From Candidatus Woesearchaeota archaeon (GTDB taxonomy: Archaea > Nanobdellota > Nanobdellia > Woesearchaeales > ARS49), in assembly GCA_038891615.1 (NCBI GenBank), contig JAWADY010000001.1, positions 170,952-234,951 of the forward strand: a stretch of 64,000 nucleotides of DNA. The letters are read 5' to 3'. The notes beneath the pieces are model-generated. The model did not search any database, was not told the DNA's origin, and saw only the letters and a program-made list of their open reading frames with translations. The first letter of the stretch is position 1, and every line of letters starts with the position of its first letter. Shown here piece after piece: positions 9,571 to 38,377 of this stretch. A program made the translations under genes and the position numbers.

Positions 9571-10218
9571 ATGATGGAAAGCGACAAAGAGGTCAAAACG
9601 CTAAAAGGAACAACCACTGTTGGCATTGTCTGCAGGGATGGAGTTGTTCTTGCTGCTGACAAGCGAGCAACTGCTGGCCTTGTTTTTAGCAAAAAAGAGA
9701 AAAAAATTCATCCAATAGCAGACAACATGGTTGTTGCAATGGCAGGTTTGGTATCAGACGCACAACTTCTGATAAAGTTGATAAAGGCTGAACTAAAGCT
9801 CAAAGACCTTCAAACAGGAAGATATTCAAATGTAAAAGAGGCTGCAAATCTTCTAGCAGGAATGCTTTATATGAACATAAGAAAGATGACAATGGTGCCT
9901 GGAATTGTGGCTTTCTTGCTAGCAGGAAAGGATAATGAAGGATTCCACCTCTATAACCTTGGTATCGATGGTTCGATAACAAAATTTGATGATTATACTT
10001 CTGAAGGTTCTGGCTCTGTTTTTGCTCTTGGCGTGCTTGAAGCGAACTACAAGAAGGGGATAGGTATTGATGAAGGGATAAAGCTGGCTGTTCGCACGGT
10101 GAATGCTGCGCTGCAAAGAGACCCAAACACTGGTAATGGCATCGACGTGGTGACTGTAACCGACGAAGGGATAAAGACAGTGCTTGAGAAGGAGCTTGTG
10201 GAGCGGCTGGAAGCTTAA
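9571..10218 (+). CDS. psmB: proteasome subunit beta (with propeptide)
   Basis: LKGTTTVGIVCRDGVVLAADKRAT places the catalytic Thr after a G/T processing site. About 215 aa. Confidence 0.9.
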   Translation: MMESDKEVKTLKGTTTVGIVCRDGVVLAADKRATAGLVFSKKEKKIHPIADNMVVAMAGLVSDAQLLIKLIKAELKLKDLQTGRYSNVKEAANLLAGMLYMNIRKMTMVPGIVAFLLAGKDNEGFHLYNLGIDGSITKFDDYTSEGSGSVFALGVLEANYKKGIGIDEGIKLAVRTVNAALQRDPNTGNGIDVVTVTDEGIKTVLEKELVERLEA

Positions 10219-10308
10219 AGTTCCAAAAATCAGAAAGGCAACTCACAAAAGCATTCTGGACTTAAGAAGATAATAGGTAGAGTTAAGCTTAAGTAAAATG
10301 CTAGAAAA

Positions 10309-12198
10309 ATGGCAGAGATAATTAAGGAAATCCTAAAGATGCTCCCTTCGGGAGTCATCTCTGATAGCGCATTTGAGGGAGCGAATATTGTATTTTATAC
10401 AAAGGACAAGGATTTTTTCCTTAACCCTGGAGAGAGCATCAAAAAGGCTGTCGATGAATTCAAAAAAAGGATAGAGTTAAGACCAGACCCAAGCATCACG
10501 CTTGAGCCTGAAAATGCGGAAAAAGAAATAAAAAATATCCTACCTGAAGAGGCAGGAATTGGCCAGATTCTTTTTGACCCTCAAAGAAGTATTGTTGTTA
10601 TTGAAACAGAAAAACCAGGCCTTGCGATTGGCAAACAAGGAGCGCTGCTGCATGAGATAAAAAAGAGAACATTCTGGGTTCCAGTTATGAGAAGAATGCC
10701 TACAATCCGTTCCCAAATATTGGAGAACATACGTGGTGTTCTTTATCAATACTCAGATTACAGAAGAAAGTTTCTTGACAGGGTTGGCCACAGGATTTAT
10801 GACGGTTGGCGACGGGAAAAGAAAGAGGAATGGATAAGGGTTAGCTTCCTCGGCGGAGCAAGACATGTTGGAAGGAGTTGCATGTTTTTGCAAACACAGG
10901 AATCTAGAATTCTTCTCGATTGCGGGATAAATGTTGCTTCAGAAACCGAGGCATTTCCATCCCTTGATGCACCTGAGTTCAACATAAAAGACCTTGATGC
11001 GGTCGTTGTCACACACAGTCATCTTGACCACATCGGCTTTGTACCTTACCTTTTCAAATACGGCTATGAGGGCCCTGTTTATTGTACCGAACCTGTTAGA
11101 GACATCGGCTCTTTGCTTCTAATTGACTACATCAAAATAATGAAGTCAGAAAACAAACCTTTAGTTTATGATGTGGAGGATGTGAAAGAAATGGTCAAGC
11201 ACACCATCACCCTAAACTATGGAGAGGTGAGCGACATAACTCCTGATGTCAGGCTGACACTGTACAATGCAGGCCATATTCTTGGAAGCGCAATGGCACA
11301 TCTTCATATTGGAAATGGCTTGCATAACATTCTTTACACAGGCGATATGAAGTTTGGAAGGATGCAACTCCTTGAGCCAGCAGAGTATAGGTTCCCAAGG
11401 CTTGAAACGGTTATTATTGAAAGCACTTACGGAGGTAAAGCAAATGTTCTTCCACCATTTCAGGAGCAAAACGAATATCTAAAAAGAATTATAAAAGAAA
11501 CCGTTAAGCGTGGGGGCAAGGTGCTGATGCCGGTCCTTGGTTCAGGAAGAGCACAGGACATGATAGTCATGCTTGATGGAATGGTAAGAGCAGGCGAGCT
11601 TGAGCCTGTACCAGTCTATATCGATGGTCTTGTTTGGGATATCACAGCAATACATACTGCTTATCCTGAATTTATGTCGGTTCAGATAAGAAAGCAAATC
11701 ATCCACAAGGATCAAAATCCTTTCTTAAATGAGATATTCAAACGCATTGGGAGTCAAAAGGAAAGAATGGAAGTTATCGAAGAAAAAGGGCCGGGAGTTA
11801 TACTTGCAACTTCTGGCATGCTTGTTGGAGGGCCCTCAGTCGAATACCTAAAGCATCTTGCAGACAATCCAAGAAACAGCCTTGTCTTTTCATGCTATCA
11901 GGCTGAAGGCTCCCTTGGTTACAGAATTCAGCATGGTGAAACAGAGCTAGTTTTCCGCGATGGTAAAAAGGAAGAAATTTGCCCATTAAAGATGGAAGTA
12001 CACAAACTTGAGATAACTGACCACTCAGATAGAAAACAGCTAATGAACTTTATCTACAAAGTGACGCCAACACCAAAGAAGGTCATTGTTGTGCATGGAG
12101 AAAACTCGCGGTGCCTTGACTTAGCAAGTTCAATTCACAAACAACTAAAGATTGAAACTGTTGCACCACGCGTTCTTGAAGCAATAAGATTAAAATGA
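10309..12198 (+). CDS. fttA: beta-CASP ribonuclease aCPSF1/FttA (two N-terminal KH domains + metallo-beta-lactamase/beta-CASP)
   Basis: 629 aa. HSHLDHIGFVPYL is the MBL motif HxHxDH. The length is the typical aCPSF1 length. Sits adjacent to psmB as in many archaea. Confidence 0.9.
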   Translation: MAEIIKEILKMLPSGVISDSAFEGANIVFYTKDKDFFLNPGESIKKAVDEFKKRIELRPDPSITLEPENAEKEIKNILPEEAGIGQILFDPQRSIVVIETEKPGLAIGKQGALLHEIKKRTFWVPVMRRMPTIRSQILENIRGVLYQYSDYRRKFLDRVGHRIYDGWRREKKEEWIRVSFLGGARHVGRSCMFLQTQESRILLDCGINVASETEAFPSLDAPEFNIKDLDAVVVTHSHLDHIGFVPYLFKYGYEGPVYCTEPVRDIGSLLLIDYIKIMKSENKPLVYDVEDVKEMVKHTITLNYGEVSDITPDVRLTLYNAGHILGSAMAHLHIGNGLHNILYTGDMKFGRMQLLEPAEYRFPRLETVIIESTYGGKANVLPPFQEQNEYLKRIIKETVKRGGKVLMPVLGSGRAQDMIVMLDGMVRAGELEPVPVYIDGLVWDITAIHTAYPEFMSVQIRKQIIHKDQNPFLNEIFKRIGSQKERMEVIEEKGPGVILATSGMLVGGPSVEYLKHLADNPRNSLVFSCYQAEGSLGYRIQHGETELVFRDGKKEEICPLKMEVHKLEITDHSDRKQLMNFIYKVTPTPKKVIVVHGENSRCLDLASSIHKQLKIETVAPRVLEAIRLK

Positions 12199-20164: not shown

Positions 20165-20291
20165 CCCCGCGTAGCTCAACGGTGGAGCGTCCGGCTGTAG
20201 CTGAAAAGCGCCCGTAGACAAGGTATTTGCCATGGATGACAACGGGTCAGCCGAACCCGGAAGGCTGCTGGTTCGAATCCGGCCGCGGGGA
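20165..20291 (+). tRNA. tRNA-Tyr (anticodon GTA) with ~55-nt intron at canonical 37/38 position
   Basis: C1:G72 acceptor (CCCCGCG/CGCGGGG) as in archaeal tRNA-Tyr. D-arm GCTC/GAGC. Anticodon stem TCCGG..CCGGA is split by an insert at 20201-20255. T-arm GCTGG-TTCGAAT-CCGGC. Discriminator A. Confidence 0.8.
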
Positions 20292-23293: not shown

Positions 23294-23435
23294 GCCTCGG
23301 TAGTCTAATGGCTAGGATAGAGCCCTGTCGACGCCAAATCCAAATTGGCCAATGGCTTTTGATGGACTAGCCTGACGCGTGGTTACGCGTTGCGACAGAC
23401 CGGCTCTGATGCGGGTTCGAATCCCGCCCGGGGCG
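23294..23435 (+). tRNA. tRNA-Asp (anticodon GTC) with 70-nt intron
   Basis: Acceptor GCCTCGG/CCGGGGC. Anticodon stem GAGCC..GGCTC. Exon loop CTGTCG + C38 (GTC anticodon, G37/C38). T-arm GCGGG-TTCGAAT-CCCGC. Discriminator G73 as in tRNA-Asp. Intron at 23331-23400. Confidence 0.7.
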
Positions 23436-27005: not shown

Positions 27006-30000
27006 TCACACAGTAACTAAATTTCCAGCAACTAACTCTGCTTGTTTTAAAACGGTTTCTGTTGCTTTTTTTTCTTTATCAGGCGGATAGCCATATTTTC
27101 TCAGTATTTTCTTTACTTTGAGGCGCAACTCTGCTTGAACACTTTCTCTTTGTGTCCAGTCTATTGTAACACTTTTTCTTATCATTTGTGTTAGTTCGAG
27201 TGCTATTTTTCTTAAGGTTTCGTCACCAAGTATTTTAACTGCGCTATCATTGGCTTCAAGTGCATCATAAAATGCAAGTTCATCTTCACTCATTCCAAGC
27301 TCTTTTCCCCTGTTTTTTTCTTCTCTAACTTTTCGTGCTAACTCTATTAATTCTTCTACAGCTTGCGCAGCCTCTATAGTCCTATTTGTATATTTCTTTA
27401 TTGTTTTATCCAGCATCTCCATGAAAGATTTGCCTCGAACAAGGTTTCTTTTTGAAATTATTTTAATCTCATCATTCAATAATTTTTTAAGAGCTTCAAA
27501 CGCGAGGTTTTTCTGAGGCATATCTCTTACTTCAGCTAGAAAACGCTCTGATAAAATTGAAAGTTCTGGTTTTTTAATTCCAGCAGCCTCAAATATATCT
27601 ATAATTCTATCAGAGATTACTGCCTTTGAAATAATCTGTTTGATTGCTGTTTCATATTCTTCTATTACATCTTTTTTGGTTTCGAGTTTTTTTGACATTG
27701 TTAATTTTAATGTCTGAAAAAAGCCAACTTCTTCCTTAATCTTCATGGCTTTTTCATGAGGAAATGACAAAGATAATGCTTTTACAAGAGCTGTTGCTTC
27801 TTTTCTAAATCTTTCTTTTTTCCCTGGCTCTTTTAGTATGTATTCCATTGCATTTAGCATGAAAGGAAATTTTTCTTTTGGCGAAAGCTCGAAAAATTTC
27901 TTGTAATTAAAACCATAAAACATATCTTTAACTATCTCATATTTTTCTAACATTAATTTGACAGCCTCTTCTTGGTCCAATATTGGCTTTCCTTTACCGC
28001 CACTTAGTGTATAATCCATAAGTGCTTTTTTAAGTTCAGCTCCAACACCCATATAGTCGACAATCAGACCACCTTCCTTTCCAGGATAAACCCGATTCAC
28101 TCTTGCTATTGCCTGCATTAGAGTATGACCTTTTATTGGCTTATCAAGATACATTGTATGCAGAGATGGCGCATCGAACCCTGTCAAGAACATATCTCTT
28201 ACGATAAGGAGTTTGATTTCATGTTTTGGGTCCCTAAAATTATCCCCTATTCTCTTTCTTCTTTCTTTGTTTCTTATATGCTGCTGCCATTCTTTCGGGT
28301 CAGAAGCAGAGCCTGTTATTACGACTTTAATAAATCCTTTATCATCGTCATCATTATGCCACTCTGGCCTTAGTTTTATTATCTCGTTATAAAGGTCAAT
28401 GCATATTCTTCTCGACATACAAACAATCATTCCTTTTCCATCAAGGACAGAAAGCCTTTGCTCAAAATGATTTACAATGTCTTCTGCAATCCTTCTTATT
28501 CTTTTAGGAGCGCCCGCAACCTTTTCAAGACTTGCCCATTTACTTTTAAGTTTTTCTTTATGCTCTACCTCTTCGCCTTCTGTTACCTCCTCGAACTCTG
28601 GATCAATCTTTGGTCTTTCTTCTGGTTTTAACTCCAGCTTTGCTAATCTGCTTTCGTAAAATATTCCTACAGTAGCACCATCATTAATAGCTTGTTCAAT
28701 ATCATAAATATCAACATATTTTCCAAATACAGCAGGGGTTGATCTATCCTCTTTTTCTATTGGCGTTCCAGTAAAGCCAATGAATGACGCATTGGGCAAA
28801 GCATCTCTTAAGTACTTTGCATAACCATATGTTATAAGCACCTTATCTTCTTTTTTCAGTATTCTTGCAGGAAAACCATATTGGCTTCTATGAGCTTCAT
28901 CCGCTATTACAATAATATTGTCTCGCTCTGATAGAGTAGGATACTTTTCTCTATCATCTTTTGTTTCTGGAAAGAATTTTTGTATAGTAGTAAAAATAAT
29001 TCCGCCAGAAGCAACTTTAAGTAATTCCATCAGTTCTTTTCTTGTGCTTGCTTGAACTGGTTCTTGTCTTAATATGTCTTGACACTTGATAAAAGTTCCA
29101 AATAATTGGTCATCAAGGTCATTTCTGTCTGTAAGAACAACAATCGTAGGATTATCCAGTTGTCTAATAATTTTTCCAGCGTAAAAAATCATTGTCAAAC
29201 TTTTTCCAGAACCCTGAGTGTGCCACACAATACCTGCCTTTTTATTTGTCCTTCTTGCCTGCAAGGTTGATTCTACTGCTTTATTTGCAGCCCAATACTG
29301 GTGATATGCTGCTAATTTCTTTTTTGTTTCTTTATCTTTTTCAAAAACAATAAAGTTTCTTACGATATCTAAAAGCTTGTCTTTGTCAAGCATGCCTCTA
29401 AGCAAGATTTCTATTTCTGATAGCCCTTTCATCGGTTTTTCTCCTTCTATTGTTTTCCACTGCATAAACCTCTCTGGCTCAGAAGTAATCGTGCCTGCTC
29501 TTGCATCCATGCCATCGCTAATAACTAAAATTTCGTTATATTTGAACAAAGAAGGTATCTGTTCTTTATATGTTTGAAATTGATTATATGCTGTCCAGAT
29601 TGTTGCATCTTTATCTGCAGGGTTTTTTAACTCTATAACAACCAAAGGCAAGCCATTAACAAACAACACAATATCTGGCCTTCTTTCAGCATTGTTTTCT
29701 ATTACTGTAAACTGGTTGACTGCAAGAAAATCATTATTTTTTATATCTTCAAAATCGAACAAATTAATCAAAACGTGCCTTTCTTCACCTGCTTTTGCTA
29801 TAGGAATGCTGATACCATCTGTAAGCATCCTATGAAAGGTTTCATTGTCAACAAGCAACTTTTGGCTTCCTATTCTCAAGACTTCCTTTATAGCCTGCTC
29901 TCTCACCTCTTCTGAAACCTGCGGATTAATCCTTCTCAAAGCTTCTCTTAATCTATCAACAAGCACAACATCTTCATATCTCTGCCTTAGAGCATATTTT

Positions 30001-30110
30001 CCACCTGGTAAGTAATCCTCATTATTTCCCCTGATTACTTCATAGCCAAGGCTGCCCAAAACTGACAAAGCAAATTCTTCAACATCCGATTCATGGATTG
30101 CTTTTATCAT
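27006..30110 (-). CDS. hsdR: Type I restriction enzyme R subunit
   Basis: 1034 aa. Walker [17 protein letters not shown] box [11 protein letters not shown], HsdR N-terminal nuclease region. Confidence 0.9.
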
Positions 30111-30511
30111 TTCATCATCTTCTTAAATTTCAAGATTAAATTTTTCAATTGTTCCACAACAACCTCTGCTTCTTCCTTTTCAAGCTTTTTTCCATAATAA
30201 TTTACAGCGTTTCTAGTTTTTCTTAAATTATCAAAAATGTCAGCTTCCCTAGATAAATTTAATATTTCTTTTAGAAAAGCTGTGTAGCATTCATGATTAT
30301 AAATTTTGAATCCTTTTTTAATAGGCAATGCTTCTAAAATCTCCCTTAATGAATCGTACAATAAAGAAATTTTGCTTATAAGAAATTCATCAGCCAAAGA
30401 ATCAGTAGAGTTAAATTTTATTTCTGCTGTTTCTAATAAAGATATTATCATATTTTTATCCTCTTTCGTCTCTTTTGCAATTCTTTGTTTTAAGCATTCT
30501 CTCCAGTCCAT
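30107..30511 (-). CDS. HEPN-like protein, putative partner of the adjacent MNT
   Basis: 134 aa, all-alpha. [12 protein letters not shown] resembles the HEPN Rx4-6H box, but His appears replaced. Gene order and 2-nt spacing after the MNT gene are typical of MNT-HEPN modules. Confidence 0.45.
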
Positions 30512-30512
30512 C

Positions 30513-31025
30513 TTACCAGTTCCCTTTTATTTTGAAACCATTTAATATATTTTTAAGCAAATTTTCACTTTTTACATCTTCAATTCCTCTAAAAACAAAA
30601 ATCTGTATTCTCCTTTTTAGCAATTTTTCAAATTTCTCAAGATTAATTTCTTTTTTCGTTGGTGTAAAAATTGCAAGATCAATATCAGAATCAATCTTTG
30701 CTTCTCCTTTTGACAAAGAGCCAAAAAGATAAACTATTGGAGTTAATAAATTCTTTTCCAATTCTTTCAATAAGCCGGAATCTTCTAATATTTTTTTCCA
30801 ATAAATTCTTGATAACTCTACGAAAAGCTCAGAATCCTTATTTACAAAATAATAATTATAAATCTTCTCTTTTTCTTTTTTGAGCAAGCCTTCTTTATAC
30901 AAGTTTTCAAGAATCTTTGAAGCTGTCGGCGGGCTTATTTTTTGAATTCTTGCATACTCGCGAACATTAATCCGACTATAGCAATCTTCAAAGAAAGGCT
31001 TCAAAGTGTTAAATATTTCTAACAT
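30513..31025 (-). CDS. minimal nucleotidyltransferase (MNT) with N-terminal wHTH
   Basis: LFGSLSKGEAKIDSDIDLAIF is the GS..DxD pol-beta NTase motif. N-terminal REYARIQKISPPTASKILENL HTH-like segment. Confidence 0.65.
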   Translation of the reverse strand: MLEIFNTLKPFFEDCYSRINVREYARIQKISPPTASKILENLYKEGLLKKEKEKIYNYYFVNKDSELFVELSRIYWKKILEDSGLLKELEKNLLTPIVYLFGSLSKGEAKIDSDIDLAIFTPTKKEINLEKFEKLLKRRIQIFVFRGIEDVKSENLLKNILNGFKIKGNW

Positions 31026-31125
31026 ATGTTAAAAATAATTAACATTTCTATTTAAATCTTTTGAAAAATAAACCTCAAAATATATGTTAAAAATAATTAA
31101 CAAGTGTTAAAAAATATTAACATTT
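31026..31125. promoter_or_regulatory. three copies of a 20-nt palindromic operator-like repeat (ATGTTAA-N6-TTAACAT) upstream of and overlapping the MNT start codon
   Basis: Copies at 31026-31045, 31084-31103 and, degenerate, 31105-31125. The arms are exact reverse complements. Confidence 0.4.
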
Positions 31126-31130
31126 TTGTA

Positions 31131-32510
31131 TTAAGCAGATTTTTTAATCTCCCTTTCCATCTCTTTTATCATCTCAGCAGGCACTCTAATTTTGCCAGAC
31201 ATAAGTTTAGGAAGGAGAGAATCGCGAAGTTGGGAGAAGGTGAGGGATTCTTTTAAGTTATTATAAATTCGATTATAGATAATAGTTAATATATTTTCAA
31301 AAATATCTAAAACTTTTTTTTCAGGTATTAAAATTTTTGTTGATTTAATGTGATTTAAATTAATTATTGGCATAGTGCTTCCTGAAGATATTCTTTCCCA
31401 ATATTTCTCTTCGGATAGTCTTTTAAGGAAGATAAATAAATAGAATCTTCCTATTTTGTTTTCGTCTATTGTTATTTTTGCTAAACGACTTACTATTACA
31501 GCCTTATCATAAATATCAGTCATAATCCCTAGTAATCCTAGAGTCCCCGTTTTTGATATAATTATATCTCCTTTTTTAACAGAACTCCTTTTAACTTCTT
31601 GAAATTTTTTTTCTGATATAAAATGCTTAAATGGCTTATATAAAGGATAACCTTCCAAGTATTCCATTTCGATAATAGGAATTCCAGAATTTTGATATTC
31701 TGTTATTTTCATTTGTGTTCCGAATGGTCCATCGACTATTGAATTTTTCTCATCAGAGGATATATCTTCGATTTTCCCAACCCTCCACCCCTTAGGTATC
31801 TCTTTGCCGAGCTCTTCATTATAAACCATTTCTCCGCCAGAGCTTTTGTAAGGCTTACCCTCTTCATTCGGAAACTCAAAATCAACAAACCAGTGCTTGA
31901 AAATTGCCTGGCCAATTGCCTCAAGGGTTTTGTTCATTCGCTGGTTGAGTTCGATCTTATCATCAAATGCCGAAAGAACTTTAGCAATGGCGCGTTGCTC
32001 GGGGAGGGGCGGGATAGGAAGTTCTACATCCTTAAAAGTGTTTGTAGTTATGGTTTCAAAAACAGTTCCATAAGATACAGATCTAATCTTATTTATCGAG
32101 TTTTTAATCGAATAATAGAGGTATATTACATCATATTCTTTTTTTGGTTGTAAACCATAACATGTCTGATTAAAAGTCATCGGCTCTGGTAATAATGCTA
32201 TTGCACCGACAGTCCCTCTCGAAGTAATTACAATTGTATTTTTTGGATGGATTTTTGCATTGCTATTCTTTACTCCCTCTTCGGTTATTGTTCTTTCTGT
32301 AACTGTTACATATCGCGACTTAACATTTGCAATATCCCTTGCAGTTGCCCATTTAAATTTTCCATCCCAAAAATATTTAATTTCTGTTTTAGGGGTTCCC
32401 CCTAATGAAATATCGCATGTTTCACTAATAGATTTAACCTCCCAATCCTCAGGGATCATTCCGATTTCAGTTTGTTTGAATTTGGGTTTATTTTGGGTTT
32501 GAGGGTTCAT
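31131..32510 (-). CDS. hsdS: Type I restriction-modification specificity subunit
   Basis: Two target-recognition domains separated by conserved repeats. N-terminus MIPEDWEVKSISE is typical. The start was chosen at Met 32510 (MNPQTQ...). The ORF track extends to 32609. Confidence 0.8.
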   Translation of the reverse strand: MNPQTQNKPKFKQTEIGMIPEDWEVKSISETCDISLGGTPKTEIKYFWDGKFKWATARDIANVKSRYVTVTERTITEEGVKNSNAKIHPKNTIVITSRGTVGAIALLPEPMTFNQTCYGLQPKKEYDVIYLYYSIKNSINKIRSVSYGTVFETITTNTFKDVELPIPPLPEQRAIAKVLSAFDDKIELNQRMNKTLEAIGQAIFKHWFVDFEFPNEEGKPYKSSGGEMVYNEELGKEIPKGWRVGKIEDISSDEKNSIVDGPFGTQMKITEYQNSGIPIIEMEYLEGYPLYKPFKHFISEKKFQEVKRSSVKKGDIIISKTGTLGLLGIMTDIYDKAVIVSRLAKITIDENKIGRFYLFIFLKRLSEEKYWERISSGSTMPIINLNHIKSTKILIPEKKVLDIFENILTIIYNRIYNNLKESLTFSQLRDSLLPKLMSGKIRVPAEMIKEMEREIKKSA

Positions 32511-34095
32511 TTTTAACCACCATAAGTAATATACAGTTGTTATTGTTGTCTGGCACTTTGATAATCTCAATATTTGGCATTTTTGTCCTTTCTTGAAGTG
32601 ATTTAACAATTGTTTTTATTCTATCATCATCAAACTTAGAAATAGGAATAGGTTCAAATTGTTTTGTTTTTTCATTTGCACCAATGATATATACCTTTAT
32701 ATTAGACTCCTTCACCTTTTTACTAAGGTCGCTAGCAAAATAAGAAACTATTTCATCGTTACTACCTGAAAAAACATCCGAAGATTTCAATTCTAGTATT
32801 TCGTTTTCAGTATTTACAAAACTAATGTCAAAAGTTGAATTTTCAAATATCTTTTTAGATAGGCAATTTAAAAAATAACAAATAGGTTTATCTTCATTCT
32901 CTATGGCTAATAATTTTAAAATAGAGCCCAATAAAATACTATTAAATGAGTCTCTTATTTGCATTTTTTCATAATAATCTAAAAGTATTTTACTTAATTC
33001 TTTCTGTAGCTCGTTATAAATCTCCATGTTTTTTATTTTAATTGAGTTTGCGGATATTCTACAGCCTGCATGATAAACTCTGAAAGATTCGTTATTCAAT
33101 AATTTAGTTTTAATTTCTTCTAAGAAACTTCCCCGAATTTCTATGCTATTGTCTGAAAATAGTATTAGGAAGTTAGGATTTGTCTTTTTAATTATCACGT
33201 TGCCGTCTTGTTTTACAACATTATTCTTATCATCAAATATTTTTTCCTGATATGGAATGATAGAATTTTTTAACTTTATGTATTCTTCATTATAATAACT
33301 CAGATTATATCGTTTTGCTAAAAAATCTTGTACAAAATCATCATAATTTGTATATGGCTTCCTACCAACTTTGACTAATGACAACGGTATTCTTTCTATC
33401 GGAGCAGGTAAAATTATTTGTTTGTCCTTGACCTTAAACGCTTTTTCTTCTATAAACTTTTTCTCGAAATCGTCATCACTTAATTCTAAAGAAAAAGGAA
33501 CCCCGCTTACTTCACCACAAAATTTATTTTTACCGCCCAAATATTCAAATGCCACTTTTTGAGGTATACCTAACCAGTTAGCAAAGAACACAGAAGGATT
33601 AGTTTCATAAAAAATAACATCAATACTATCTTTCTCATTTTTAAAGTAAACAAATCTCAGGATATTATCTTTATCAAGCATTCTGTCTATAACCTCCCAT
33701 TTGGGTGTAATGGTTTCCTCACCAAAGAGGCTATGACAAAGTATGACAAATTCGGATGTGACTATACAAATCGCATATTTCTCTTCCATCCTCATTCTGG
33801 TGTTCATTTCGTCGCTAAAATCGTTAAGTAATTCTTTTGCGTCTCTGTCATCTATTAAAGGATAAGAGGAAATCAAATTTTTAATCCAAATTTGACAATT
33901 CTCCTTTAATTGAATTTCATCAAATTTTTTTCTTTTACCTAAATTTAATAACGAATTAACAACCTTCGTTATTTTATCTTTATCTACTTTTCTGGTTATT
34001 TTATCTTGGTTAATATCATTCTCAATTACTTTCTTTGAATATACGAATGTTGGCTCTCCCTTATTTTGATTTGTAATCATTATTACACACTCCAC
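32488..34095 (-). CDS. hypothetical 535-aa protein embedded between hsdM and hsdS (no recognisable motif; Asn/Lys/Ile-rich)
   Basis: Long ORF that overlaps hsdM by 13 nt and hsdS by about 23 nt, which implies translational coupling within the Type I R-M operon. No P-loop or nuclease motif seen. Confidence 0.5.
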
Positions 34096-35606
34096 CCCAG
34101 CATCTCCAAATTTCTTTTTATTTCTTCATCTAGCTTTTTGCTCTCTTCCATTTGCTGTTTGAGTTCTGCTGTGAGTTTTTTCATTTTTTCTTCAAAAACT
34201 TCTTCTGGCTCTTCTTGTTCTTCAAAGCCGACATAACGGCCTGGTGTTAAAATGAAATTATTTTTTTCAACTTCTTGTAATGAAGCAGATTTGCAAAAAC
34301 CAGGGATGTCTTTATATCCAAGTTTGTTTTCTCCTCTCCATGCATGGTAAGTATCGGCAATTTTCTTTATTTCATCATCAGTTAATTCTCTATGTCTTCT
34401 ATCAATCATTACGCCCATTTTTCTGGCATCGATAAACAGAATCTTTCCTCGTCTATCTTTGAACTTGTTATCTTTTTTATCACGAGCAATAAACCATAAA
34501 CAAGCTGGAATCATTGTGTTGTAGAACAGCTGCGATGGCAAAGCGACAATACAATCTACGAGGTCTGCTTTGATAATATTTTTTCTTATTTCTCCTTCGT
34601 TAGAAGTCATTGAGCTTAAAGAGCCGTTAGCAAGAACAAAACCAGCAATTCCTGTTGGTGATAAATGATGGATAAAATGCTGTACCCATGCAAAATTGGC
34701 ATTTCCTTTTGGTGGAACACCAAACTTCCACCTAACATCTTCTTGTAATAACTCGCCGCCCCAGTCTGAATCATTAAAAGGAGGATTTGCTAGGATAAAA
34801 TCAGCCTTCAAATCCTTGAATTGGTCGTCATGAAAAGAATCACCCCACTTAATGTTTGCGTCAATTCTTCTTATCGCAAGGTTCATTTTGCACAGACGCC
34901 ACGTTGTCTGGTTGCTTTCTTGACCATAAATTGAAATATCTCCAATCTTTCCACCATGAGCTTCAACAAATTTTTCTGATTGAACAAACATTCCTCCTGA
35001 ACCACAACAAGGGTCAAATATTCTTCCTTTGTATGGTTCAAGCATTTCAACAAGCAATTTTACAATGCATCTCGGTGTGTAGAACTGACCGCCTTTTTTG
35101 CCTTCTGCAGATGCAAATTGTCCAAGAAAATATTCGTAAACTCTTCCAAGAATGTCTTTGCTTTTGTTTTCTTTATCACCTAGCCCAATCGTGCCAATTA
35201 AATCTATTAGTTCTCCTAGGCGCTGCTTGCTTAATGCTGGCCTTGCATAAATCTTTGGGAGAACACCTTTTAATGAGGGATTATCCCTTTCGATATCCTC
35301 CATTGCATGGTCTATGAGTTCTCCAATTTCTGGCTTTTTTGCATTAGCCTGCAAATACTCCCATCGCGCTTCTTTTGGAACCCAGAAAACTCTTCTTGCA
35401 AGATATTCGTCAACATCTTCTGGATCAGCTTCTGGGTCTTTTTTTAATTCTTCATAAACTTCTTTAAAAGAGTCGGAAATGTATTTTAAGAATATTAAAC
35501 CTAAAACAACATGCTTGTATTCTGCAGCATCCATATTGCTTCTCAACTTGTCTGCAGCCTGCCAGAGCTTCTCTTCGAAACCTAAATTCGCACTATTAGT
35601 TTTCAT
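34083..35606 (-). CDS. hsdM: Type I restriction-modification N6-adenine DNA methyltransferase subunit
   Basis: Motif [15 protein letters not shown] and motif IV LANPPFN. HsdM N-terminal domain. 507 aa. Confidence 0.9.
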
Positions 35607-35828
35607 CTTATTTCACCTTTTTTCTTTCTCGGAGTATTCCAATAAGGGCTTTTGCACTTAGGACATACTTTTGGCTCTTTGGTTGTTGAATCTGGGAGAG
35701 TTTCAGATAAAAATCTTTCTCTTGCTCGCAAGATTAGATGGGCTTTTAAAATGACCTTTAATATGAGCGTGGTAACAAAGTATAAATACAAAAGATTTAT
35801 AAGGCTTAAAACAAAAAAGGTGAAAAAA

Positions 35829-36038
35829 ATGGCAAAAGAGACAAAGGATAGGTTGTTGCGGGGCATTGTTGGAGCAGTTCTGCTTTTTTACTCGCTGCCA
35901 GGACTGTTCATTTCAGGCTTTTATGGCGGAATGATGATGGGCAGAATGTTTTTGGGAACAGGAGGCAGCTTTTTTGTTTCCATTCTGCTAGCACTAATTG
36001 GTGTTTGGCTGCTTTATGATGCTATAAAGCCACAGTAG
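35829..36038 (+). CDS. small membrane protein (69 aa)
   Basis: ATG preceded by AAAGGTGA. Two hydrophobic helices. Overlaps the antisense ORF 35603-35866. Which of the two is real is unresolved. Confidence 0.3.
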   Translation: MAKETKDRLLRGIVGAVLLFYSLPGLFISGFYGGMMMGRMFLGTGGSFFVSILLALIGVWLLYDAIKPQ

Positions 36039-38264: not shown

Positions 38265-38377
38265 GGGCCGGTAGCTCAACCCGGTAGAGCAGCGGACTTT
38301 TAGCGCAAATAGCATGTTACTTAAAGTGCAAAGTGTAAGCAATCCGTTGGTTGCGGGTTCAAATCCCGTCCGGCCCG
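38265..38377 (+). tRNA. tRNA-Lys (anticodon TTT) with ~39-nt intron
   Basis: Acceptor GGGCCGG/CCGGCCC. D-arm GCTC/GAGC. Anticodon stem GCGGA..TCCGT is interrupted after CTTTTA (intron 38303-38341). T-arm GCGGG-TTCAAAT-CCCGT. Discriminator G. Confidence 0.7.

Follow-up and report, generated by a model that had tools for sequence, protein, structure and literature searches.

A contig of a Candidatus Woesearchaeota archaeon (GenBank assembly GCA_038891615.1, JAWADY010000001.1, positions 170,952 to 234,951) carries a Type I restriction-modification (R-M) operon on its minus strand, and between hsdM and hsdS lies an open reading frame (ORF), here called gene X. What does such a gene encode, and what could its product do inside a restriction operon? 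A sequence-only reading of this stretch of 64,000 nt (the window) had regarded X as the best candidate for an undescribed R-M-linked defence component, with no nuclease signature visible. The analysis reported here finds that residues 416-530 of X have a Schlafen/AlbA_2-type fold with a complete, conserved catalytic set. X is probably, although by no means certainly, a single-polypeptide sensor-effector that joins a Schlafen-type tRNase to a YejK-like N-terminal region and acts as an abortive-infection backup to restriction-modification.

The family of X and its Schlafen-type domain

The maximal ORF of X (32488-34095, minus strand) begins with GTG at 34095 and encodes 535 aa, as the sequence-only reading had stated. 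Its other descriptions of the gene also hold, namely the 13-nt overlap with hsdM (stop TAA at 34085-34083), the overlap of about 23 nt with hsdS (X stop TAA at 32490-32488, which is 23 nt within hsdS if ATG 32510 is taken as the hsdS start) and the richness in Lys, Ile and Asn (11.9, 11.1 and 8.7%). An alternative start, ATG 34080 (context TAATAATG), lies 2 nt past the hsdM stop and yields 530 aa. Judged from the nucleotide sequence, this is the likelier start, because the 530-aa product fits the N-terminal lengths of the homologues and a GGAG-containing stretch (GGGGTGGAGTG) precedes it.

No usable match to X was obtained in Pfam, NCBIfam, PADLOC or PHROGs, and neither an internal repeat nor a likeness among its sub-regions was found. 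By searching 5.8 billion proteins, 20 full-length clusters (515-560 aa, 33-73% identity to X) were identified, and an exhaustive search of 1.84 billion proteins retrieved 166 representatives of the family (131 at E ≤ 1e-10), nearly all about 510-600 aa long and aligned end to end, with identity down to about 20%; full-length homologues at 33-77% identity occur across both searches. Members with a named source come from archaeon HR04, Methanosarcina spelaei, Ca. Methanoperedens, Geoglobus, Woesearchaeota and one Bacteroidota metagenome-assembled genome (MAG), and a partial protein 100% identical to X is present in a Candidatus Woesearchaeota MAG. The family is rare and mostly archaeal, with a patchy distribution on islands and mobile elements, and a scan of viral contigs revealed no close relative. 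A set of 57 diverse members (mean identity 29%) served as alignment and profile for the conservation counts given below, and the AlphaFold2 model of X built from the family alignment reached a pLDDT of 84.2.

These data bear on whether X is a gene at all. The GC content of 0.30 somewhat raises the odds of long chance ORFs, and X could in principle be a spurious ORF in AT-rich DNA or a degraded hsdS or hsdM fragment. However, X has no similarity to HsdM or HsdS and no Pfam match to the Type I core domains (N6_Mtase, Methylase_S, HSDR_N/SNF2), and tblastn matches of the HsdM, HsdS and HsdR proteins of the window never overlap the X homologues; as the sequence-only reading assumed, X is not a decayed copy of either neighbour. 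The full-length relatives and the confident fold prediction refute such an artefact, whose probability is negligible. Since full-length homologues exist and overlapping stop/start junctions recur in other loci, X is considered a genuine gene beyond chance.

The C-terminal domain was recognized by both profile and structure comparisons. With a profile of the 57 members or of the C-terminal domain, the best PDB sequences were Schlafen 13/8 (5yd0, E 0.0028-0.0077) and SLFN11 (7fex, E 0.017-0.027); a narrow profile of close family members found no match among PDB sequences, and only the broader one detected the Schlafens. The alignment to 5yd0 and 7fex passes through 'ExxxxExK' and 'G-x-D-(D/E)', with G467-x-x-E470 of X opposite GVDD of 5yd0. 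When the AlphaFold2 model was searched with Foldseek, a check that the sequence-only reading had itself proposed, SLFN13, SLFN14, SLFN5, SLFN11 and the SAMD9 tRNase domain independently occupied the top ranks (prob 0.97-1.00), and all of these matches vanished once residues 416-530 were deleted. The effector is thus recognizable, and the earlier claim that X bears no nuclease signature falls, given a Schlafen Ex4ExK motif at residues 425-432 and a Schlafen/AlbA_2-type fold over the last 115 residues. Its two other negative statements stand: X has no Walker A motif ([AG]x4GK[ST]) and, without a Pfam, NCBIfam or PADLOC match, is not PrrC/RloC-like, and it shows no HEPN signature (no Rx4-6H motif). 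Two further matches were rejected: the 2H-phosphoesterase-like protein PH0099 (PDB sequence match, E 0.15-0.4) was judged spurious, as X lacks the HxT motif histidines there, and Foldseek matches to the E. coli sliding clamp were dropped at a probability of only ~0.05.

Conservation within this domain centres on the putative active site, with E425 kept in 54, E430 in 55, K432 and G467 in all and E/D470 in 55 of the 57 members. Ex4(E/D)xK is the catalytic motif in SLFN11 and bacterial Schlafens (PMC13056530), the catalytic triad of SLFN13 is E205/E210/D248 (PMC5862951), and mutation of these catalytic residues abolishes activity in SLFN13, RorSlfn5 and CbCash (PMC5862951, PMC13056530, PMC13462974). 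We infer that X is an endoribonuclease and that tRNA is its target.

The N-terminal region and its partner domains

For the remainder of the protein, profile comparison hints at YejK. Pfam NA37 (PF04245) matches none of the 57 members at E ≤ 0.05, compared with 4e-112 for E. coli YejK. With hhalign, X was compared with an NA37 profile of 12 sequences built from plasmid copies, and 150-180 co-linear columns were aligned (X 57-263 to YejK 58-271; P 0.009-0.026, Prob only 2-4%), pairing the top motifs ILCHS of X with LFCHY of YejK, RFVYFK with RYLSFLK, and S-FF--WLG with SDFF-DFLG. None of 80 block-shuffled decoys reached this score, their alignments spanning merely 25-38 columns, and control sub-regions of X gave P 0.3-0.4. 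A second register places VGRK...DF-QDF of X opposite the DNA-binding loop of YejK. YejK is a dimeric clamp with a basic DNA-binding pore (R173/R176/K177); in X, VGRK (238-241) is conserved, with the register ambiguous. Foldseek with the X model did not recover YejK, and the N-terminal profile searched against PDB sequences gave a chance uL4 match only. The N-terminal region was counted as having the YejK fold and is called YejK-like here, with NA37 family membership left aside because the sequence support is weak. By this likeness, it would bind DNA. Conserved polar residues also stand out in this part of the protein: H116 (33733-33735) and H337 (33070-33072), the sole histidines of the 530-aa X, are kept in 56 and 55 of the 57 members, respectively, and N139, D/E283 and N356 are conserved along with them.

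Since the N-terminal fold resembles a double-stranded DNA clamp, the Schlafen-like domain might instead be brought to DNA and cut invading or host DNA rather than RNA, making X an auxiliary restriction endonuclease. The surrounding system targets DNA, and Schlafen N-domains such as those of SLFN5 and SLFN11 bind single-stranded DNA or DNA. However, all characterized active Schlafen/AlbA_2 nucleases, human and bacterial, cleave tRNA or rRNA, and RorSlfn5 is inactive on DNA (PMC13056530); a DNA-directed nuclease is accordingly rated as quite improbable, the least credible of the functional alternatives.

Two related proteins show the N-terminal part in other company. P0057, a 738-aa protein of the Asgard archaeon Promethearchaeum syntrophicum (CP042905), shares residues 8-422 of X (33% identity, E 9e-64) and carries at its C-terminal end PRTase-CE (PF24390, E 1.5e-46) in place of the Schlafen domain. 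PRTase-CE is an effector domain of biological conflict systems. P0120 contains only residues 254-414 of X, at its C-terminus, behind a different N-terminal part of about 450 aa without a Pfam match, and its gene (L056, 7001-8869) directly follows genes for BrxL, DUF365, DUF1802, GmrSD_N, a UvrD-helicase and PDDEXK_1. On account of the PRTase-CE swap and the partial module in P0120, the N-terminal part of X acts like a portable unit that is paired with different effectors, a hallmark of sensor-effector defence proteins. As side observations, the N-terminal part of P0120 has a D...IEYQGDQH motif and looks endonuclease-like by eye, a Csa3-like regulator lies downstream of its gene, and the gene for P0057 (L055, 7001-9217) has neighbours that are mostly without annotation.

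The same features speak to another explanation, in which X kills no cell and is a non-catalytic nucleic-acid-binding accessory, a nucleoid-associated or regulatory protein that combines a YejK-like clamp with a binding-only AlbA_2 domain and modulates R-M expression, DNA access or methylation. YejK is indeed a nucleoid-associated protein (PMC11229321), and several mammalian Schlafens lack catalysis. Nevertheless, all four catalytic positions are near-invariant at 29% mean identity, which would be unexpected for a binding domain, a paralogue exchanges this domain for another effector-type domain, and the family is rare, patchy and located on islands or mobile elements, unlike a housekeeping nucleoid protein. 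This explanation is regarded as improbable. A more far-reaching proposal, which is tentative and at present rather doubtful, builds on the sensor-effector reading: X and its paralogues would contain a portable archaeal infection-sensor module, composed of a YejK-like DNA clamp and a His/Asn-bearing beta domain, that senses the condition of DNA, or is deceived by DNA-mimic anti-restriction proteins, and is linked in cis to exchangeable suicide effectors (the Schlafen RNase, PRTase-CE in Promethearchaeum and, further, the N-terminal region of P0120).

The operon in the window and the loci of homologues

The flanking genes of X, confirmed by Pfam as hsdM and hsdS, and the tight packing of the whole operon bear out the earlier view that X is an integral part of a Type I R-M operon. 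The order on the minus strand is an 87-aa ORF, hsdM, X, hsdS, a gene for a winged helix-turn-helix (wHTH) protein with a minimal nucleotidyltransferase (MNT) domain, a HEPN-like gene and hsdR (Table 1).

Table 1. Gene X, its predicted parts and the surrounding operon (window coordinates)
Feature	Position	Strand	Basis and remarks
Gene X	32488..34080	-	530 aa; predicted single-chain sensor-effector defence protein; ORF, homologues, AlphaFold2 model
Region A of X, YejK/NdpA-like fold	33322..34080	-	Residues 1-253; conserved F88, H116 (LCHS), R133/D136/N139 (RMLDKDN), S163-x-FF-xx-WLG171
Region B of X, beta-rich	33001..33321	-	Residues 254-360; conserved D283, H337 (YHAG), N356; secondary structure and conservation; separable module in P0120
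Three-helix linker between sensor region and nuclease domain	32836..33000	-	Residues 361-415
Schlafen/AlbA_2-type domain	32491..32835	-	Residues 416-530; predicted Mg2+-dependent endoribonuclease effector
Catalytic motif E425-N-E-I-L-E430-L-K432 (Ex4ExK)	32785..32808	-	Codons GAA...GAA TTG AAA; sequence
G467-A-N-E470	32671..32682	-	E470 aligned with the third catalytic carboxylate, D248 of rat SLFN13; hidden Markov model alignment
hsdM, Type I methyltransferase subunit	34083..35606	-	Pfam N6_Mtase 4.5e-115, HsdM_N 5e-27; directly upstream of X
hsdS, specificity subunit	31131..32510	-	Pfam Methylase_S 1.9e-43; two target-recognition stretches
wHTH-MNT gene	30513..31025	-	Pfam NTP_transf_2 1.7e-9, HTH families; PADLOC PDC-M05A 1.4e-14
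HEPN-like partner of MNT	30107..30511	-	PADLOC PDC-M05B 1.5e-7; weak Csx1/HEPN models
hsdR, restriction/translocase subunit	27006..30110	-	Pfam HSDR_N, SWI2_SNF2, T1RH-like_C; 4-nt overlap with the HEPN gene
87-aa ORF	35603-35866	-	Overlaps hsdM start by 4 nt; no family match

Base composition varies along this operon: GC is 0.30 over 30-34 kb (X, hsdS, MNT and HEPN), 0.36-0.37 in hsdR and hsdM and about 0.40-0.43 in the flanks, and this drop suggests that the variable middle of the operon was acquired or exchanged separately. In a related locus (L038), whose hsdM and hsdR are 74% and 62% identical to those of the window, hsdS is followed directly by hsdR with no MNT/HEPN genes, and the pair in the window is accordingly an independent second add-on.

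For comparison, loci were collected from protein-identity look-ups, species-representative genomes and metagenomes and clustered at 90% identity, giving 22 lineages and, with the window, 23; neighbours were classed by tblastn with the HsdM, HsdS and HsdR proteins of the window and by Pfam. The neighbourhood survey that the sequence-only reading had proposed came out in its favour, with X immediately next to hsdM and/or hsdS, on the same strand, in 11 of the 23 lineages (the window, L009/10, L019, L021, L022, L032/33, L034, L036, L038, L039 and L008/43). In 7 more, X lies close to other methylase-based defence systems; these comprise two lineages within Eco57I/TaqI_C-type methylase operons (L011, with the order methylase-X-SNF2 helicase and 4-nt overlaps, and L024/41), three with Type I genes ≤6 kb away, on the other strand or non-adjacent (HR04, Geoglobus and L006), and two divergent from DUF1156-methylase/DUF499-ATPase loci (L027/31/37 and L028-30), a type classed as BREX-related in a 2026 study (PMC12839542). 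Five lineages have no R-M neighbour (L004, L012, L017/23/26, L020/40 and L044, the L044 contig being too short to judge); among these, one adjoins a HEPN_RiboL-PSP gene and one a PIN gene and an 1815-aa STAND-like ATPase. Stop and start codons at X loci typically overlap by 4-23 nt, the order hsdM-X-hsdS is kept down to 36% X identity, and the identities of X and of the neighbouring hsdM rise and fall together from locus to locus (93/77, 75/56 and 74/51%). The genomic context of X points to defence.

These regularities invite a guard model in the style of PrrC, in which X would be docked in latent form on HsdM2S (or R2M2S), viral anti-restriction factors, by disabling the Type I enzyme, would free or activate the nuclease, and the N-terminal region would mainly be an interface with Hsd proteins and not a DNA sensor. 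The fixed place that X takes between hsdM and hsdS in many lineages, where stop and start codons overlap, the parallel X and hsdM identities, which suggest co-inheritance, and the PrrC/EcoprrI precedent are all in keeping with it. On the other hand, X also occurs with Eco57I-type or DUF1156/DUF499 systems, on the opposite strand from Type I genes, or alone, and a specific Hsd interface therefore cannot be universal; moreover, the N-terminal fold resembles a DNA clamp and no known Hsd-binding module. Such a guard is thought unlikely, although it is the strongest of the rival explanations.

Several other observations were made at these loci. HEPN_RiboL-PSP, a second RNase family recurring beside X, is encoded directly upstream of X in L019 (7090-7917) and convergently with X in L012 (3103-3900). 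The hsdM of L019 (5116-6641) is present in two ORFs, HsdM_N of 189 aa and N6_Mtase of 322 aa, possibly through a frameshift, pseudogenization or a sequencing error. In Methanosarcina spelaei (L004), X stands alone, with a 410-aa TPR protein (9799-11031) encoded 194 nt downstream and a MoxR/VWA/DUF58 cluster and an AAA_15/21 ATPase upstream. In L008, a 90-aa HTH protein is encoded upstream of hsdM, at the position equivalent to that of the 87-aa ORF of the window, which may be a small controller or regulator. Within the window, three copies of the 24-nt repeat AACATATGTTAAAAATAATTAACA (31021-31122), including a TGTTAA...TTAACA inverted motif, occupy the 105-nt gap between hsdS and the wHTH-MNT gene; they may be the operator or promoter of the MNT/HEPN pair, which would hence be a separate transcription unit within the operon. 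Farther from X, three tRNA matches of 113-142 nt against a 71-nt model (20165-20291, 23294-23435 and 38265-38377), not called by ARAGORN, are probably intron-containing archaeal tRNAs. Together with the identical partial protein from the Woesearchaeota MAG, they mark the organism as an archaeon.

Proposed mechanism, known systems and significance

How might a Schlafen-type nuclease be held in check and released within an R-M operon? In the sensor-effector reading, the N-terminal ~415 residues (a YejK/NdpA-like nucleic-acid-binding region, a beta-rich region and a helical linker) would keep the nuclease off until an infection cue alters the ligand or oligomeric state of this region. Once released, the metal-dependent endoribonuclease of residues 416-530 would cut tRNA, and possibly rRNA, so that translation stops in the infected cell, in the manner of bacterial pSlfn and Cash proteins and of human SLFN11/13, with abortive infection as the expected outcome. 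Candidate triggers would include loss or damage of bound DNA (as for the YejK-like sensors of PANGU), DNA-mimic anti-restriction proteins, and inactivation of the HsdMS complex (as in the PrrC model). Activation could proceed through dimerization via the YejK-like part, which is a reasonable expectation given that X has one lobe where the cores of eukaryotic Schlafens have two. Predicted co-transcription and translational coupling with hsdM and hsdS would make X a second, suicidal layer behind the Type I enzyme.

Each element has a precedent. Prokaryotic Schlafen nucleases are experimentally validated anti-phage tRNases (PMC13056530, PMC13462974): bacterial Schlafens cleave tRNA in response to a trigger and thereby protect against phage (PMC13056530), and CbCash becomes active when its sensor domain rearranges the oligomer so that the Schlafen site is uncovered (PMC13462974). 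BREX-type operons contain RNases of the Schlafen, HEPN and PIN families as built-in backup effectors (PMC12839542), and YejK-like sensors leave the nucleoid once it is degraded and switch on their toxic partners (PANGU preprint, 10.64898/2026.04.06.716658).

Some results weigh against this interpretation and temper its probability. R-M neighbours are not obligatory, as the five lineages without one indicate (one of them on the contig too short to judge). Matches to PDB sequences have borderline E-values (0.003-0.03), and Foldseek reaches an E of only 2e-3; PF04326 is not matched by X (E ≤ 0.1), and only 2 of the 57 members match it (best E ~0.013), a divergence that leaves gene X unannotated. 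AlbA_2 domains also serve as nucleic-acid-binding modules, and certain Schlafens are inactive. In addition, the conserved polar residues H116, N139, D283, H337 and N356 hint at an extra activity or ligand site outside the model.

Compared with prokaryotic Schlafens (RorSlfn5, EcoSlfn7 and CbCash; AlbA_2, PF04326), X shares the fold, Ex4(E/D)xK and a third acidic residue, as well as the fusion of one nuclease domain to a variable presumed sensor, the defence neighbourhoods and the predicted tRNA cleavage leading to translation arrest. However, its domain falls below the Pfam model and is C-terminal, whereas that of RorSlfn5 and CbCash is N-terminal; its partner of about 415 aa lies outside the listed common partners (HisKinase, HTH, DUF5929, Ig-like, DUF262 and TBP-like); and the members of its family come mainly from archaea and habitually sit between hsdM and hsdS. 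The cores of eukaryotic SLFN11/13/14 and the SAMD9 tRNase domain match residues 416-530 best in structure; X shares with them a triad equivalent to SLFN13 E205/E210/D248, but it is a single lobe rather than a two-lobed pseudo-dimer with a zinc finger, and it has no helicase domain; a functional RNA-binding groove in X would require homo-oligomerization.

Similarities to systems with other architectures are more limited. Like PANGU, X combines a YejK-like module with a toxic effector, is linked to R-M or defence genes and belongs to a set with interchangeable effectors. PANGU, however, is a two-gene bacterial operon with recognizable NA37 proteins, whereas X is a single fused polypeptide of archaea with likeness at the fold level only; X is therefore not bicistronic, and Schlafen is absent from the ten reported PANGU effector clusters. 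PrrC and RloC resemble X in being translation-targeting suicide nucleases (as predicted for X) in a Type I hsd operon with a backup-to-restriction logic, but X lacks Walker A, an ABC-ATPase head and the PrrC nuclease motif and has a wholly different fold; X is best read, by analogy, as functionally analogous to PrrC/RloC and evolutionarily unrelated. The Schlafen-HisKinase-wHTH 'backup suicidal effectors' of BREX and BREX-related systems (PMC12839542) likewise place a Schlafen RNase in or beside a methylation-based operon, and two X lineages adjoin DUF499/DUF1156 BREX-related loci as those systems do. They differ in that the partner in X is YejK-like, not GHKL/HisKinase plus wHTH, and its main host is Type I R-M.

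Both the effector class and the presence of RNase backups inside methylation-based defence operons are therefore already known. What is new is the X family, its YejK-like/Schlafen fusion and its mostly archaeal habit of residing between hsdM and hsdS; the literature yielded no paper in which Schlafen is linked with NdpA or YejK. The earlier description of X as an undescribed R-M-linked component accordingly stands for the family and its N-terminal module and lapses for the kind of protein, which had been described as prokaryotic Schlafens (PMC13056530, PMC13462974) and Schlafen backups (PMC12839542), and the sequence-only interpretation as a whole is partly supported.

At present, defence-annotation pipelines overlook such genes, as the family has no Pfam, NCBIfam or PADLOC model. 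The conserved E425/E430 and the domain-swapped paralogues provide directly testable predictions. Abortive-infection backups of restriction such as PrrC and RloC are textbook knowledge in bacteria, and to our knowledge they are essentially undescribed in archaea. If the sensor-effector reading is true, Schlafen-type translation shut-off, which is common to human antiviral immunity, would be built into archaeal R-M operons, and two discoveries of 2026, prokaryotic Schlafen effectors and YejK-like infection sensors, would be joined in one polypeptide. Should the more tentative portable-sensor proposal also prove true, X and its relatives would represent a single-chain archaeal counterpart of the two-gene bacterial PANGU systems and the first case reported from archaea in which a tRNase backs up Type I restriction through abortive infection.

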